A program made the position numbers and the translations under genes. The notes under the pieces are model-generated. The model saw only the letters and a program-made list of their open reading frames with translations. It ran no database searches and had not been told where the DNA came from. Positions 1,687 to 37,062 of a stretch of 64,000 bases of DNA are shown in pieces. This stretch comes from a virus. Every line of letters begins with the position of its first letter. The stretch's first letter is position 1. The stretch is taken from IMG/VR virus record IMGVR_UViG_3300045003_000080, positions 1 through 64,000 of that record, one strand, 5' to 3'.

Positions 1687-1862
1687 CACCGCGCCCAGCA
1701 GAAGAATGCTGGGCGCGGTTCTGGGAAGTCGTCGGAGCTGCCGTGTACCGACACCTCCGGGACACGGCAGCCACCGATACGACAACTACGCAGCAAGATC
1801 AGCCCAGTGAGGGACAATCTCGATCCGAGATGCCTGTTTGCCAGGCGTCCGAAGAACCGTGA
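1674..1862 (+). CDS. small protein convergent on the integrase (possible directionality factor)
   Basis: MDELTPRPAEECWARFWEVVG...; overlaps the integrase 3' end; function is a guess from position only. Confidence 0.4.
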   Translation: MDELTPRPAEECWARFWEVVGAAVYRHLRDTAATDTTTTQQDQPSEGQSRSEMPVCQASEEP

Positions 1863-3396
1863 TATGACGGATCACTTGGGCGAGCGCTAAGTGACGGTCA
1901 TGCTCGTTGAGACTCGGCCAGTAGTCGAGCATTGACTTGATCTTGTCGGCCGGAGGCGGTCCCCCACTGGCGACGGCTGCTTGAACTTTGCTTTTGCGGG
2001 CTTGCTTGAGGGAGAGGTCCGTCAAGAGTTCTTCGCGCGTGTTGCGGAACTCGTCCAGATCTATCGCCTCGGCGAGGTACGCCTGCTTGTTTCGGCCCAG
2101 CTTCCGCTCCAGAGCGGCAATGTCTTGATCGAGGGCGTCCAGTTCGGTACTGCGCTCATCCTTGCGCATGGCCTTCTCGTAAGCGGCGCGTGCGCTGCTG
2201 TCGGGCGAGGCGAAACTCTGCAGCCACGCGAGCACCTGCCCTTCTGCGTTCGGCAGCATGATTGTCGGTCCTCGTAGCGCGAACTCTTCCTCGCGCGCAG
2301 GGCATCGGAACTGGATCTTTCGTCGTCCGGCCCGGTAGAACGGGTGGGCGTGCATGGGACGGTGGCAGGGTTGCCCGTCATCTCGTACGTCTCCGCACCG
2401 GAGCAGCCCCGACAGAGAGTACTTCCATACCTGTTCGCTTGTCCGGTGGGCCGTCGGCTGCTTGCCGTCCAGGAGCTTGGATTTGTAGGCCGCCCACAGG
2501 TCGAGGGAGATGAGGGGTTCATGGAGGCCAGGTTCCCAAAGATCGTATTCGTCGGGGCGGCCAGTTGGGGGATGGGGCATCGTGGGGTTGCTGCGACCGT
2601 GCAACAGGCCGGCCGCGAAGCCGGTCTCCATGATCTGACGCCAGTCCCTAGCCCTGAGTACGTTCCCACGGAGTGAGCGGATGCCCCGCTCGTGCATGTC
2701 CTTCGCGATAGAGGCCAAGCTGTCGCCCTGTAGGGTCCAGCGTTCGTACGCTTCGGCGAGCGCTGGACCCCGCACGGGGTCGATTTCGAAGACACCCTTA
2801 CAGTTGTCGCAGTATTTGAATGCGTGCGGATTTTCCGAACTCCGCTCACATTTTGGGCATCGCTGATATCCGAATCGCGCCTGGCCAGTGTGCGGCAGGC
2901 CATTTCGTCGGCGTCTTTGATGGGTTTCGCGCCAACTCATGCCGATGACGTCTGATTCGAGTTCGTCCATGCTGAAATACATACGGAGGAAGAACGCGCC
3001 ATATGGCGTAGAAGTATCGATTGGCTGAGTGGCGGAAACGAGAAGTCCACCGACAGCGTTAAGGCGGTCGTTGTGGGCGCCGCATGCGGTGGCGTTTCTG
3101 CCGAAGCGCGAGAACTTCCATACGACGATTTTCTTTGCTTCGCCGTCGCCAACGCGTCCGATTGCTTCGGCGATACGTCGCTTGGCGAAGGAACGGCCAG
3201 ATTTGTCGGTCTCGATGATGTACTCAGTGATGCCGTGCCCAGTCCGCGCGGCCCACTCGTCGATGGCGTGCCTCTGCTGTTCGGGGGAGACCGTGCGTTC
3301 GTGCGCGAGACTGACGCGGATGTAGGCAATCGCGAGTTGGGACGGGTCGAGCGGTGTAGGTACTGCGTCGGCAGGCGGGGCGAGGTTGACCGGCAT
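1786..3396 (-). CDS. large serine recombinase (integrase)
   Basis: YIRVS catalytic Ser, KFSRFGRN, recombinase domain, LSGLLRCG...C...FRC Zn-ribbon, C-terminal coiled coil. Confidence 0.95.
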   Translation of the reverse strand: MPVNLAPPADAVPTPLDPSQLAIAYIRVSLAHERTVSPEQQRHAIDEWAARTGHGITEYIIETDKSGRSFAKRRIAEAIGRVGDGEAKKIVVWKFSRFGRNATACGAHNDRLNAVGGLLVSATQPIDTSTPYGAFFLRMYFSMDELESDVIGMSWRETHQRRRRNGLPHTGQARFGYQRCPKCERSSENPHAFKYCDNCKGVFEIDPVRGPALAEAYERWTLQGDSLASIAKDMHERGIRSLRGNVLRARDWRQIMETGFAAGLLHGRSNPTMPHPPTGRPDEYDLWEPGLHEPLISLDLWAAYKSKLLDGKQPTAHRTSEQVWKYSLSGLLRCGDVRDDGQPCHRPMHAHPFYRAGRRKIQFRCPAREEEFALRGPTIMLPNAEGQVLAWLQSFASPDSSARAAYEKAMRKDERSTELDALDQDIAALERKLGRNKQAYLAEAIDLDEFRNTREELLTDLSLKQARKSKVQAAVASGGPPPADKIKSMLDYWPSLNEHDRHLALAQVIRHITVLRTPGKQASRIEIVPHWADLAA

Positions 3397-32707: not shown

Positions 32708-33277
32708 ATGAACACCCTGACAGCGAACATCAACATCGCGAAAGCACTCGCGGCCAGTGAGCATCCCTACGCGCGCGGCAAAATCATCAGCGACGACCCG
32801 AACGCCCCCAACGGCGCCGGCTCGCCCGAAGGTATTGACTACGTCATCCTGCCCGACCGGTCCGTGCAGTGCAGTGTCGGCTGGTCCCCGCACGTCCAGG
32901 ACGGCGTCATCACTCACTTCTACCAGGACGACAACCAGGTCGAAGGCATCCTCTACGACGTCCCCGAGTTGAACCACCACCCCACCGTCCTAACCAACCT
33001 GCCCGACGGCTCACCGGTGCGCGTCGACAGGGACATCGCCCACATCCTCAAGGCACTGTGGGCGCAGGGCGTCGAAACGTTCGCGTCCTGCCAAGGCGGC
33101 TGCCCCGGTGACGGCAGGCCGGCGAACCTCGCGATGATCGGCTACTACACCTGCGACGAGAACACGGTGCGCGAGTTCTTCAAAGACTTCCCGTACGCCG
33201 AGTTCGAGGATGGCGGCTTCAACACCCGGTTCGTCTGGTTCCAGACGCCCCTCCCGTGCCCGGCGTGCACCCCATGA
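32708..33277 (+). CDS. hypothetical protein
   Basis: C-terminal VDRDIAHIL...GVETFASCQG motif. Confidence 0.7.
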   Translation: MNTLTANINIAKALAASEHPYARGKIISDDPNAPNGAGSPEGIDYVILPDRSVQCSVGWSPHVQDGVITHFYQDDNQVEGILYDVPELNHHPTVLTNLPDGSPVRVDRDIAHILKALWAQGVETFASCQGGCPGDGRPANLAMIGYYTCDENTVREFFKDFPYAEFEDGGFNTRFVWFQTPLPCPACTP

Positions 33278-33325
33278 ACGGCGCTGGGCAGAAGTATCAC
33301 ACCCCGCGATAGTACGATCCGACGT

Positions 33326-33973
33326 ATGGATGACTTTCCCCGCCTCGAACTACGCACCAAACGCCTCATCCTCACCACCGACGCCGCCCACCTGCTCGAA
33401 CTGGCCGAACTCGCACGCGCCGGCATCCACGACCCCGAAGTACAGCCCTTCAGCACCATGTGGACCGACGTCACCCCCGACGAGCGCCTCGAATCAGTCA
33501 TCGACTGGCACCGCACCCGACGCGAAACCTGGGACGAAAACGACTGGACCCTGCCGTTCTTCGTCCTGCACGCTGGCGCCGTCATCGGCACCCAATCCAT
33601 CAGCGCCGACAACTTCGCGATCCTGCGCACCGTACGCACCGGATCATGGCTCGGACAACGCCACCAGGGCCAAGGGTTCGGCACCGAAATGCGCACCGCC
33701 ATCCTGCACTTCTCGTTTGTCCTGCTCGGCGCCTACTACGCCATGACCAGCGCCCACGACAACAACGCCGCATCCAACGGGGTGTCACGGAAACTTGGCT
33801 ACCGGCACAACGGAATCAGCCGCGTCGTCGTACGGGGCGGCCCCGTCACCGTGCGGCACTACATCATGACGTACGCCGACTGGGAAGGCCGCGAATCGGA
33901 CATCGCCATCGAAGGCGACCTCAACGCGCTCACACGCGCATGCGGTGTCCCCCCCCACGGCACCCTACGATGA
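33326..33973 (+). CDS. GNAT acyltransferase (RimJ/RimL-like; leaderless)
   Basis: LRTKRLIL, HQGQGFGTEM, NAASNGVSRKLGY. Confidence 0.92.
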   Translation: MDDFPRLELRTKRLILTTDAAHLLELAELARAGIHDPEVQPFSTMWTDVTPDERLESVIDWHRTRRETWDENDWTLPFFVLHAGAVIGTQSISADNFAILRTVRTGSWLGQRHQGQGFGTEMRTAILHFSFVLLGAYYAMTSAHDNNAASNGVSRKLGYRHNGISRVVVRGGPVTVRHYIMTYADWEGRESDIAIEGDLNALTRACGVPPHGTLR

Positions 33974-34246
33974 TCGTGTGCGCGTAGAACAACACCATTA
34001 CATCTCCACCGCCTGCCAACACGGCATCCACACCCGGTGCGCCCGCACCTGCAAATTCTGCGACGCACCCTGCCGATGCGGCTGCGACCACGACGAACGC
34101 GACGACGAGGAACTACATGAAGCGCTCGCCCGGTTCCTCTGGGAAAACGACGCCTGGAACGACCTGACCTCGCACCCGCGAGAACTCGCCGACCAGATCG
34201 TCGGGTTCCTGTGCCGCATCCCCCCGTCCTGCCGGTAGGAGGATGC

Positions 34247-34438
34247 GTGCGCCTGATCGTCACCAACGGCGCCCAGGCAGTCGACATCACCGTCAAAGGC
34301 GGCGGCGTTAAAGCATTGATACGAGCCGAGAAGGTCGCGCGCCGACTCATGCGGCAATCCGCGAAGACGGCTGCCACCACCCAGCCGTTCGGGTTCACCG
34401 TCCGCTCCGACACCGCACTCGCCGACACCGACGAATAA
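34247..34438 (+). CDS. small hypothetical protein
   Basis: AGGAGG RBS, GTG start. Confidence 0.55.
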   Translation: MRLIVTNGAQAVDITVKGGGVKALIRAEKVARRLMRQSAKTAATTQPFGFTVRSDTALADTDE

Positions 34439-34440
34439 GT

Positions 34441-34469
34441 GTGACGACCCCCGGGATTCGTGGTATAAG
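34441..34469 (+). promoter_or_regulatory. candidate promoter for the peptide genes
   Basis: GTGACG-17 nt-TATAAG with TG extension. Confidence 0.5.
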
Positions 34470-34499
34470 AGTGGTGTCAGTTCCTTCCAGAGGAGCGCA

Positions 34500-34664
34500 G
34501 TGACACCACCCACCCCTACCGAGGCTGCCGTGATCACGCGGATCCCGGACGTGCTGGGGCAGCCCCTCGGCAAGCCGACGCCCGCCACTGCGGCGATCCG
34601 CGACAGGATCCTGCAGAAGAAAAGCACCGAAGTACCAGTCGCCGCCTTCCAATCGTCGATCTAG
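34500..34664 (+). CDS. FxSxx-COOH family precursor-like peptide 1 (54 aa)
   Basis: MTPPTPTEAAVITRIPDVLGQPLGK...EVPVAAFQSSI*; GAGGAG RBS. Confidence 0.85.
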   Translation: MTPPTPTEAAVITRIPDVLGQPLGKPTPATAAIRDRILQKKSTEVPVAAFQSSI

Positions 34665-34672
34665 AGGTTGAC

Positions 34673-34852
34673 ATGTCAGCCGCCACCGAAACCCCCATCC
34701 CGTCGCAGGTCGTCGACCTGCGCCAAACGCCGCTCCGCCAACTCGTCAGCGACCGCGAACCCGGCAAAGCGGCCCGCGACGCAGTCGCACGAATCGCGCC
34801 CCCCGACCAGACATCAAAGGTCCCAGTCGCCGCCTTCAACTCATCCCTGTAG
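34673..34852 (+). CDS. FxSxx-COOH family precursor-like peptide 2 (59 aa)
   Basis: MSAATETPIPSQVVDLRQTPLRQL...KVPVAAFNSSL*; GAGG RBS. Confidence 0.88.
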   Translation: MSAATETPIPSQVVDLRQTPLRQLVSDREPGKAARDAVARIAPPDQTSKVPVAAFNSSL

Positions 34853-34861
34853 GAGCCGCAC

Positions 34862-35068
34862 GTGACCACCCTCGACGAAACCCCCGTCGCCGCATCGTCG
34901 ACCGAAGAGATGTGGGGCACGCCGGAAACATGGCGAATGCCAGACGCGGGCGACACGCCTCTCGGCCAAGCTGGCACGGGAGAACAGCGTGACGCCGTCG
35001 CGCGACTCGTCCGGAAAGACAAGGGCAGCAGCGCCGTCCCGGTCGCCGCGTTCAACGCCTCACTGTAA
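34862..35068 (+). CDS. FxSxx-COOH family precursor-like peptide 3 (68 aa, FNASL variant)
   Basis: ...MPDAGDTPLGQ...RDAVARLV...AVPVAAFNASL*; AGGAG RBS. Confidence 0.8.
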   Translation: MTTLDETPVAASSTEEMWGTPETWRMPDAGDTPLGQAGTGEQRDAVARLVRKDKGSSAVPVAAFNASL

Positions 35069-35078
35069 ACAGCACAAC

Positions 35079-35152
35079 GGGCCTATAGCTCAACCCGGCA
35101 GAGCACCTGCTTTGCAAGCAGGGGGTTCGGGGTTCAACTCCCCGTGGGTCCA
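35079..35152 (+). tRNA. tRNA-Ala(TGC)
   Basis: G3-U70 pair; loop TT-TGC-AA. Confidence 0.93.
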
Positions 35153-35228
35153 CGGGACGGTGCGGCCACGCTCCGGGAGCAGACGCCGCGCAAGCGGCCC
35201 CACGAGCTGCTGAAATGTGGGTGGCAAC

Positions 35229-35303
35229 GCCCTGTTAGCTCAGCCGGCCGAGAGCGGCTCCCTCGTAAGGAGCAGGTCCGGGGTTCGACTCCCCGACGGG
35301 GCT
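35229..35303 (+). tRNA. tRNA-Thr(CGT)
   Basis: Loop CT-CGT-AA. Confidence 0.9.
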
Positions 35304-35356
35304 CGTGGTACTGTAGGATTACATCAAGCGGTGAGGGCGAAAGCCCGGCCGCCCGG

Positions 35357-35430
35357 TGCGGGGTGGCGCAGCTCGGTAGCGCGAAGGGCCCATAACCCTT
35401 GTGTCGCAGGTTCAAATCCTGCCCCCGCCA
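35357..35430 (+). tRNA. initiator tRNA-fMet(CAT)
   Basis: 1:72 mismatch, three G-C pairs closing loop CC-CAT-AA. Confidence 0.9.
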
Positions 35431-35529
35431 CTAAGGCGCCGTCCCTCTTGGCCCGTGGGGATTCAACGCCGACAAAGCCTGAGGTCCGAACTCAGTGCGC
35501 GCCCCGCAAGGGGAAACGGGCCTGCCAAA

Positions 35530-35604
35530 CGGAACGTGGGGTAGCCCGGCCGCCCGCCAGCTTTGGGAGCTGGTTCTACGCAGGTTCGAATCCTGCCGTT
35601 CCGA
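35530..35604 (+). tRNA. tRNA-Pro(TGG)
   Basis: C1-G72; loop TT-TGG-GA. Confidence 0.88.
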
Positions 35605-35618
35605 CAACAACTTGATAT

Positions 35619-35693
35619 GGCCCTATAGCCCAATTGGCAGTAGGCGACGGTCTGAGGGGCCGTACAGTGCAGGTTCGAGTCCTGCTAGGGCCA
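35619..35693 (+). tRNA. tRNA-Leu(GAG), short variable loop
   Basis: Loop CT-GAG-GG; A73. Confidence 0.85.
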
Positions 35694-35694
35694 C

Positions 35695-35767
35695 GCTGAT
35701 GTGGCCCAGTCGGTAGGGCGTCTCCTCGCCATGGAGAAGGTCACGGGTTCGATCCCCGTCATCAGCT
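35695..35767 (+). tRNA. tRNA-Gly(GCC)
   Basis: Loop TC-GCC-AT; U73. Confidence 0.88.
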
Positions 35768-35771
35768 CTAT

Positions 35772-35846
35772 GGTCCCGTGGAGCAGCTTGGAGTGCTCGA
35801 CTGCCCGTCAAGCAGTAGGTCGCGAGTTCGAATCTCGTCGGGACCG
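35772..35846 (+). tRNA. tRNA-Asp(GTC)
   Basis: Loop CC-GTC-AA; G73. Confidence 0.9.
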
Positions 35847-35862
35847 CTCTACACTGGTTGAT

Positions 35863-36063
35863 ATGGCGAACTTTTTTCATCACGCTGGGGATGTCCTGCA
35901 CGAGGCCCTGCATTCGCTTGGCGACGAGTTCGACAAGGTGTTGGCGGAGCTTAGGCGCGCTGAGCAACCGGCTGTGCACGATGCGGAAGCGGCTGTTGGT
36001 GAGGCTGTGAAGGCTGCTGAGACTGTTGCAGAATCGGCAACTTCGGGTGTCGTCAACAAGTAG
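35863..36063 (+). CDS. small hypothetical protein (leaderless)
   Basis: TACACT 7 nt before the ATG. Confidence 0.6.
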   Translation: MANFFHHAGDVLHEALHSLGDEFDKVLAELRRAEQPAVHDAEAAVGEAVKAAETVAESATSGVVNK

Positions 36064-36085
36064 ACGCCATTAGTACTATGGCGCT

Positions 36086-36502
36086 ATGGGACCACTCTTC
36101 ACGGGTGACGTGCCCGTGCTACTCGACGTCGACCTTGACCCCGATCAACGGCAACTAGTTGCCAAGGTGATCGGCGACATGCCACCAGCCGATTGGTTGC
36201 GCGGGGTGATTCTGCGTGCCGCACTGTGGCAGGTAGCCGTCCGAGAGTTGCGCGAAGGCGACCCGCAACGCCACGACTGGACGTCGGAGAATCTGCCGAC
36301 GTGCCTTGTCGAGATCCTTGACGCCCAGGCGGGGAAGCTTCATTCGCCCGGTGGCGCGGTGCGCAGGTGTCTCGCGGATATCCTCAACGTGTACGACGGG
36401 ATGATGATCTACGACGACGGTGTTGCTGAGGCGCACGAAGAGATGTGGCGGGGGAGTCTGAGCACGAGCGAGTTCGTCGACGCGAAGGCGCGCCGGCCGT
36501 GA
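36086..36502 (+). CDS. hypothetical protein (leaderless)
   Basis: TACTAT 6 nt before the ATG. Confidence 0.65.
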   Translation: MGPLFTGDVPVLLDVDLDPDQRQLVAKVIGDMPPADWLRGVILRAALWQVAVRELREGDPQRHDWTSENLPTCLVEILDAQAGKLHSPGGAVRRCLADILNVYDGMMIYDDGVAEAHEEMWRGSLSTSEFVDAKARRP

Positions 36503-37062
36503 GTGACGGCTTGTTGTTCGTCGGTGTCGACGGGGTGTTGAACCCTTGGGACGTGCCGCGAGGCCGCGAGCTGCCTGGTTATGAAACGTTCTACCGGTAT
36601 CGCGAGTTCAACCCGGGTGGTTATACCGCTCCTACGGTGTGGGGGCTTGGCCCGGTGCAACGTGGCGGTACGCGTGTGCGGTTGAACCGGGAACACGGCT
36701 GCATGTTGCGTGAGGTTGCGGAGCGGTGGAGTCTGGAGTTGGTGTGGGCGACGTGGTGGGGGGATGACGCGCCCCGGTTGATCGCGCCGGTGCTCGGGTT
36801 GCCGGAGATGCGGGTGGTGCCTCTTTATCCAGGCACGAACCGTCCTGGCGAGAATTGGAAGCGTTGGGCGGTGAACTCGTTCGCGGATGGTCGGCCTTTC
36901 GGGTGGTTGGATGACGAGTTCGGTGCCGGTGACTATGTGTGGGCGGCGAACCGGCAGTTGAAGAAATGCATTCCGACGTTCGTGTGGAATGTGGATCCCA
37001 GGGAGGGTTTGACGTGGCAGGCCGTTAAGATGGTCGACACGTACTTCTGGGGCCTGTCGTGA
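36499..37062 (+). CDS. HAD domain protein (RNA-repair-associated type)
   Basis: LFVGVDGVLNP (first Asp replaced by Gly), LVWATWW, FGWLDDE. Confidence 0.8.
   Translation: MSDGLLFVGVDGVLNPWDVPRGRELPGYETFYRYREFNPGGYTAPTVWGLGPVQRGGTRVRLNREHGCMLREVAERWSLELVWATWWGDDAPRLIAPVLGLPEMRVVPLYPGTNRPGENWKRWAVNSFADGRPFGWLDDEFGAGDYVWAANRQLKKCIPTFVWNVDPREGLTWQAVKMVDTYFWGLS

Follow-up and report, generated by a model that had tools for sequence, protein, structure and literature searches.

The closest described relatives of the genes treated here are the FxSxx-COOH or FxsA peptides of bacteria, precursors of peptides that are synthesised by the ribosome and modified after translation (RiPPs). Their partner enzyme FxsB, which contains radical S-adenosylmethionine (SAM) and SPASM domains, is counted among the cyclophane formers (perspective PMC10114670). 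MscB, a member of the FxsB family, is described as linking C4 of Phe to the C-beta of the Ser at position i+2, and the triceptide enzyme HaaB as cross-linking His to the C-beta of Ala at i+2 (PMC11002830). Kaur et al. (2020) placed the FxSxx peptides, together with the radical SAM/SPASM enzyme and a protein of the AP-ATPase-TPR/TIR type, among conflict systems and suggested a role as toxin or signal for the processed peptide (PMC7159879). A 2026 preprint on ParA proteins presents FxsC as an active TIR protein that degrades nicotinamide adenine dinucleotide and FxsT as a ParA protein with an inactive TIR, calls both functionally uncharacterised, and mentions the authors' idea that the product of FxsAB may have antiviral activity itself or act as an alert that diffuses (10.64898/2026.10.19.760177). 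We describe three tandem genes, pepA, pepB and pepC, that encode FxsA-type peptides in the phage record IMGVR_UViG_3300045003_000080 of IMG/VR. The window analysed is the first 64 kb of this 119,829-bp record, and phage coordinates are window positions.

The three genes, with lengths in amino acids (aa), are as follows.

34500..34664, + strand: pepA, 54 aa, GTG start, C-terminus VPVAAFQSSI, Shine-Dalgarno (SD) sequence GAGGAG at 34490-34495
34673..34852, + strand: pepB, 59 aa, ATG start, C-terminus VPVAAFNSSL, SD sequence AGAGG at 34663-34667
34862..35068, + strand: pepC, 68 aa, GTG start, C-terminus VPVAAFNASL, SD sequence AGGAG at 34851-34855

With the known FxsA/FxSxx-COOH precursors (TIGR04268; MscA/SjiA) the encoded peptides share their size, a leader with D-x4-P-L and a basic-hydrophobic patch, the VPVAAF core and the F-x-[SA]-x-x end. 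They differ in being phage-borne, in forming three diversified tandem copies, in scoring below the family cut-off and in the lack of fxsB, HExxH, fxsC and fxsT genes from the same replicon. The phage peptides are homologous to the peptide component of the Fxs TIR-ParA 'apoptosis' system and of the VMAP-linked peptide-processing systems (Kaur et al. 2020; the 2026 preprint). In the sections of these sources that deal with such systems the loci are bacterial, and a virus-encoded peptide component is not mentioned there. Our search of the open-access literature, with subscription journals outside its scope, found no paper that deals with FxsA or triceptide precursors encoded by phages.

An earlier note on this DNA, made from the letters alone, had described the three peptides as FxSxx-COOH precursor-like and proposed a search with hidden Markov models (HMMs). 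Among 18,950 NCBIfam models, the top family for each of the three open reading frames (ORFs) is indeed TIGR04268 (FxSxx-COOH), with scores of 21.1 bits for pepA (E 2.6e-4), 21.1 bits for pepB (covering profile positions 1-44 of 44) and 17.6 bits for pepC (E 3.5e-3), all sub-cut-off. The same model finds exactly three places in the entire genome at E≤10, and these are pepA, pepB and pepC. A second HMM, for which 79 context-validated host peptides were the sole input and the closest homologue was excluded, scored pepB at 43.3, pepA at 28.6 and pepC at 27.6 bits, and the best of 900 shuffles reached 8.0 bits. When this host-only HMM was run on the 1,262 six-frame stop-to-stop segments of 40-120 aa in the phage, only the segments holding pepA and pepC exceeded 10.6 bits; pepB was scored separately, its stop-to-stop frame being 127 aa long.

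The lengths of the phage peptides fit those of context-validated host FxsA, which range from 41 to 77 aa. The VPVAAF core is invariant in all three, and the F-x-S-x-x motif occupies the extreme C-terminus of pepA (FQSSI) and pepB (FNSSL); in pepC the end is FNASL and Ala takes the place of the Ser. When 1.84 billion representatives were searched with a profile of the three peptides (E≤0.001), there were 21 matches, namely two window peptides, one 1,990-aa protein and 18 peptides of 46-61 aa that have a similar leader and C-terminal core and among which the FNASL end is common. For pepB there is a precomputed Pfam match, PF27839.1. Nothing relevant was found for the three peptides in PHROGs or in a Pfam copy that does not include PF27839, and a protein homologue search with pepB returned only pepB itself. 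By profile score, length and motifs, pepA, pepB and pepC are genuine FxsA (FxSxx-COOH) precursor genes carried by a phage.

Bacterial loci for comparison were collected with a degenerate DNA pattern consisting of the conserved C-terminus and the stop codon, which gave at least 120 loci, a few of them obvious false positives. Among the matches listed, most are from Kitasatospora, Micromonospora, Streptomyces, Streptosporangiaceae and Actinocrinis/Actinospica. An FxsB homologue is present in the 8-kb block of 110 of the 120 loci (tblastn, E≤1e-10), positioned downstream on the same strand in 106 of the 110 and within 300 bp in 105; the loci without FxsB include blocks that were cut by the fixed 8-kb boundaries. 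A full locus is found in L116, on an Actinocrinis contig (G003:C306) of a metagenome-assembled genome. Here FxsB combines a radical SAM/SPASM region (537 bits) with a fused alpha-ketoglutarate-dependent (aKG) HExxH hydroxylase domain (172 bits), to which beta-hydroxylation is reportedly due. In FxsC the N-terminal domain is TIR-like (177 bits) and is joined by the FxsC C-terminal domain (127 bits), while FxsT, of 1,311 aa, has an ATPase of the KGGVGR type (148 bits) as well as the FxSxx-system TPR region (866 bits). This locus bears out the statement in the earlier note that bacterial FxsA is encoded with FxsB, FxsC and the NTPase-TPR protein FxsT. The N-terminal ATPase of the Actinocrinis FxsT (L146:3631-7566, - strand) also gives a partial match to the PADLOC candidate defence protein PDC-M28B with 82 bits; besides this, PADLOC gave one generic radical SAM match among the Actinocrinis Fxs proteins and none for FxsC.

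The 55-aa FxsA that precedes FxsB in L116 is 89% identical to pepA at the amino acid level. At the nucleotide (nt) level the identity is 86% over 157 nt, which is the sole similarity between that 8-kb locus and the entire phage and which stops at the ORF borders. Over 53 codons the two genes show 13.8 synonymous and 9.2 non-synonymous differences, and the resulting ratio of non-synonymous to synonymous rates (dN/dS) of 0.21 indicates that pepA is under purifying selection. Judged by this kind of homology, the pep genes are host-derived.

FxsB scored above the cut-off in all four Actinocrinis/Actinospica genomes, with 2, 1, 1 and 2 copies. The peptides directly upstream of FxsB end with FQSFI and FNASL in G003, FNASL in G004, FQSDI in G005, and FNASI and FNSSL in G006, so the phage ends FQSSI, FNSSL and FNASL lie within the repertoire of this clade. 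The idea that the FNASL copy is a non-modifiable inhibitor, put forward in the earlier note on account of the missing Ser, is not supported: FNASL or FNASI peptides adjoin their own FxsB in three of the four genomes (G003, G004 and G006), the FNASL end is common in the metagenomic relatives, and HaaB provides an example of a link to the C-beta of Ala. A complex prediction of FxsT residues 470-1310 with pepA gave a score of 0.00 and no verdict, and has no weight either way.

The phage genome is complete, with direct terminal repeats and an estimated completeness of 100%. Searches of this complete genome gave no matches to radical SAM PF04055 (E≤1), to FxsB TIGR04269 or to the HExxH hydroxylase model TIGR04267 (E≤1), and tblastn of the Actinocrinis FxsB, FxsC and FxsT against the phage gave nothing below E 0.4. 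The absence of radical SAM and HExxH enzymes, which the earlier note had reported for the window while suggesting a wider search, therefore extends to the whole genome. As far as homology can tell, the pep genes are separated from every enzyme that defines the Fxs system.

FxsA-type genes without FxsB are also seen in other viruses. The survey for orphan FxsA that the earlier note had proposed, which relied on the exact C-terminal pattern, found fxsA-type ORFs in seven further IMG/VR records (G001, G002, G007, G008, G009, G010 and G011). FxsB was found in none of eight viral records, made up of these seven carriers and one false-positive pattern match, and PF04055 in none of the six other fxsA-bearing viral records searched with it. 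The records G001 and G010 are at least 98% complete, G010 being a complete 55-kb phage that has inverted repeats at its termini. A large terminase (TerL) related to that of the present phage, with 45-46% identity, is confined to G009 and G010 among the seven, and fxsA is therefore present in more than one phage lineage. Since G008 carries two different fxsA-type ORFs in tandem, ending with FNASL and FQSYI (L138, G008:C1 ~13.86-14.23 kb), tandem diversified arrays are not unique to this phage. A metagenome scan added two further peptides, one at a contig edge (L144) and one without FxsB in the 2.1 kb downstream (L145). The leader motif D-x4-[PT]-[LIFV] is kept in 10 of 12 orphan viral and metagenomic peptides, or in 11 of 12 when one full ORF is used. 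We discarded the notion that fxsA always lies within a tRNA array, because, within the stretches covered, tRNA genes accompany it in two of nine other viral or metagenomic loci (L140 and L145) and are missing from L004, L005, L137, L138, L139, L142 and L144.

In G011 the peptide is encoded near the contig end, and the ORFs after it are a small membrane ORF and one that is not FxsB. The orphan fxsA directly precedes a 52-aa ORF (L142:13788-13946, + strand), by eye a two-helix membrane protein, and a preceding 123-aa ORF overlaps the fxsA start. No equivalent of these 52-aa and 123-aa neighbours was seen in the window.

The pep genes are packed closely, with gaps of 8 nt between pepA and pepB, 9 nt between pepB and pepC, and 10 nt between pepC and the tRNA-Ala gene. 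Two further features belong to this region.

34441..34469, + strand: candidate promoter, GTGACG, 17-nt spacer and TATAAG, a TG lying one base upstream of this -10 hexamer, recognised by eye and agreeing at 9 of 12 consensus positions
35079..35847, + strand: array of seven tRNA genes (Ala, Thr, Met, Pro, Leu, Gly, Asp), found with ARAGORN

The structural description in the earlier note largely stands. Three tandem ORFs of 54, 59 and 68 aa, each led by a ribosome-binding site and with the C-termini and leader strings reported there, are all present; two of them, at 54 and 59 aa, fall below the 60-aa limit of the ORF track; and the unit abuts the tRNA cluster, tRNA-Ala starting 10 nt past the pepC stop codon. 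The compact ORF unit is confirmed, but its promoter is not: a scan of positions 33000-37000 found no sigma-70-like sites, which leaves the candidate unconfirmed. The scan missed the candidate because the last base of its -10 hexamer is G. No terminator-like site was found on the + strand between 34400 and 36495, and the pep cassette and the seven-tRNA array are probably one transcription unit. The phage has ten tRNA genes (ARAGORN), in two arrays that flank the cassette.

The GC fractions at codon positions 1/2/3 are.62/.55/.82 for pepA,.70/.53/.78 for pepB and.68/.58/.75 for pepC, the pattern also seen in large phage genes such as that of the portal protein (.67/.48/.83). An antisense ORF of 173 aa at 34534-35055 has.56/.75/.71, with the highest GC at position 2, a non-coding pattern.

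Besides the portal protein the phage encodes a TerL and a minor tail protein, and three genes for site-specific recombinases or resolvase-like proteins were found.

1786-3396, - strand: large serine recombinase, 85.5 bits
4783-5817, + strand: tyrosine integrase, 100 bits
13450-14067, + strand: further resolvase-domain protein

The phage is probably temperate. Two Actinocrinis genomes contain genes to which the tyrosine integrase gene of this phage shows 69-70% identity over ~880 nt, and there is a partial match in Actinospica; in five control genomes (Kitasatospora, Micromonospora and Streptomyces) matches to the integrase region are at most 165 nt. The recombinase genes and these matches suggest a temperate lifestyle and related prophages in Actinocrinis, and the integrase comparison is a second, independent pointer to the host. 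A nucleotide search around the cassette and the portal gene found no related phage in the GenBank/INPHARED collection, and the highest identity of its portal protein to any listed phage is 31%. No match was found by tblastn of pepA, pepB and a Kitasatospora FxsA against INPHARED at E≤10, a weak negative since such short queries detect only close relatives. The cassette stretch was found in two soil-metagenome DNA runs, both of which may be the source sample.

Taken together, these data lead us to propose that the phage peptides silence the Fxs suicide or alarm response of the host, either by supplying its ligand or by acting as decoys, a reading to which we give a probability of about 55%. The cassette would be transcribed together with the downstream tRNA array. 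Leader and core have been retained under purifying selection and FxsB is the only known reader of the leader; host FxsB, the radical SAM/SPASM cyclophane synthase with its aKG-HExxH hydroxylase domain, thus most likely binds the phage peptides through the retained leader elements and probably modifies them. In this way the phage would set the peptide input of the host Fxs TIR/ParA-NTPase-TPR module, and the predicted suicide or alarm system would be kept quiet during infection or lysogeny. Two routes can be considered. In the first, comparable to an antitoxin, the phage would supply the ligand when host expression fails. In the second, the phage peptides would out-compete the host precursor and serve as decoys. 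Three diversified copies would cover several FxsA types of the host clade. In a more specific and quite tentative version, possible though we would not bet on it, the FxsA-derived cyclophane would serve the Fxs TIR/ParA-STAND-TPR suicide module as its 'all is well' ligand, and the precursor gene would have been stolen repeatedly by phages, here as a panel of three, so that host FxsB would keep making the silencing ligand after host expression has collapsed.

Phages encode mimics of labile immune regulators, such as the antitoxin mimics T4 Dmd and phage pseudo-ToxI. The likeness to these lies only in the proposed logic, by which the phage supplies a small regulator that keeps a host suicide system off; the FxsA mimic differs in that it is a RiPP precursor that needs a host enzyme, and its neutralising role is putative. 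With the arbitrium peptide AimP the phage peptides share that a small phage-encoded precursor is processed by host functions, as AimP is described in a review (PMC12360287). Arbitrium phages, however, encode their own receptor AimR, whereas neither a receptor nor a TPR partner can be recognised in this phage, and known partner genes are present only in the host.

Several observations weigh against silencing of the host system by the three peptides. All three scores are under the curated TIGR04268 cut-off of 28 bits. In a calibration with 10 host peptides followed by FxsB at a distance of no more than 300 bp, four also scored below 28 bits (17.6, 22.6, 23.8 and 24.1), and the Actinocrinis FxsA that heads a complete Fxs locus reached 17.6 bits, so the cut-off misses true members of this clade; annotation based on it will miss fxsA genes such as these. 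The leader motif is loose, being present in 354 of 3000 shuffled leaders. A close host counterpart was found for pepA alone, and the best identity to context-validated host peptides is 51% for pepB and 46% for pepC among the matches listed. The notion of one phage peptide per host FxsB clade had to be rejected. A FxsB tree of 15 rows, from which L022 was dropped because its high-scoring segment pair was shorter than 300 aa, does not group by the C-terminal type of the peptide, with seven of 12 inner forks unresolved and one starred, and a one-to-one match between phage peptides and host systems is therefore unsupported. The 202-kb record G001 has a radical SAM/SPASM protein of 300 aa about 10 kb from its peptide (L006:1078-1983, - strand, corresponding to G001:C1 ~151.4-152.3 kb), so dependence on the host may not be universal. 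The integrases suit a role that benefits the lysogen equally well. Finally, we infer the hosts to be Actinocrinis/Actinospica-like actinomycetes, which is likely from the comparisons above rather than shown.

The G001 protein was considered as a phage FxsB and rejected, as its identity to FxsB is 28% over 129 aa and its top 25 NCBIfam families do not include FxsB. Its best NCBIfam matches are generic peptide-maturase families, far below their cut-offs.

Since integrases are encoded, lysogenic conversion is a live rival, which we nevertheless consider somewhat unlikely. According to this explanation the prophage FxsA is matured by host FxsB into more or broader alarm or antiviral peptide, which would arm the lysogen against superinfecting phages. 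The tyrosine integrase and the large serine recombinase would fit such a role, as would the antiviral or alerting role that the 2026 preprint suggests for the FxsAB peptide (10.64898/2026.10.19.760177), and purifying selection on leader and core is what one would expect of real substrates. The gain from extra copies is unclear, however, as the host already has its own fxsA at every fxsB locus examined, and the cassette lies in a block with tRNA genes and late-gene orientation, ~29 kb from the integrases. It is also conceivable, and in our view unlikely enough to be set well behind, that the genes are passengers captured from hosts that have no function or act on a target unrelated to Fxs. The capture of pepA looks fairly recent, with nucleotide identity to the host gene confined to the ORF, there is no evident phage partner gene, and pepB and pepC lack a close host match. 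Passengers would hardly be expected to show the dN/dS value found for pepA, to persist as three intact copies each with its own SD sequence, to keep both the FxsB-type leader and the invariant core, or to recur as orphans in seven other viral records that include phages without a related TerL.

Maturation by a phage enzyme of an unrecognised family, which would make the cassette a self-contained RiPP cluster with no need for host Fxs, strikes us as very improbable. Many phage ORFs have no family assignment and G001 has a radical SAM/SPASM gene near its peptide gene, but the complete genome of the present phage yielded none of the expected enzymes, PF04055 was absent from the six other fxsA-bearing records searched, and the G001 enzyme is no recognisable FxsB. 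We give almost no credence to an artefact, whether through mis-assembly that put host DNA into a viral contig or through ORFs arising by chance. The record does come from a soil metagenome and the ORFs are short, but the genome closes with direct terminal repeats, the homology to the host ends at the ORF borders with no fxsB following the cassette, phage tRNA arrays lie on both sides, and codon-position GC together with the HMM scores excludes chance ORFs.

If silencing of the host Fxs system is correct, the phage would represent a new viral use of RiPP chemistry, in which the substrate is carried and the enzyme is borrowed. An immune role of the Fxs locus is so far a prediction in the accounts available (PMC7159879; 10.64898/2026.10.19.760177). 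Phages of several lineages have repeatedly captured the peptide gene alone, under purifying selection, which is independent evidence of conflict and places FxsA at the phage-host interface. The natural variants pepA, pepB and pepC offer a direct handle on host FxsB, FxsT and FxsC. Should the 'all is well' version apply, this would be the first viral mimic of a RiPP precursor to rely on a maturase of the host, and it would give a regulatory role to an entire RiPP class currently without known biology.

Some neighbouring genes may be mentioned. A GNAT acetyltransferase gene (PF13302, 52.7 bits) is located at 33326-33973 on the + strand, ~500 nt upstream of the cassette; for a Streptomyces anti-phage lanthipeptide, phage escape is described as mapping to phage GNAT genes (review PMC12360287). 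Just 3' of the tRNA array, the ORF at 36445-37062 (+ strand) falls just short of the threshold for the HAD domain of 'Swiss Army Knife' RNA repair proteins (PF18143, 26.1 bits against a cut-off of 27.5 bits). At the left end of the phage, a vWA/Ro60-like ORF (133-1020, + strand) has a 38%-identical homologue in G010 (L140:3282-4052, - strand), and Kitasatospora and Streptomyces genomes likewise contain short stretches that match the gene at the nucleotide level.

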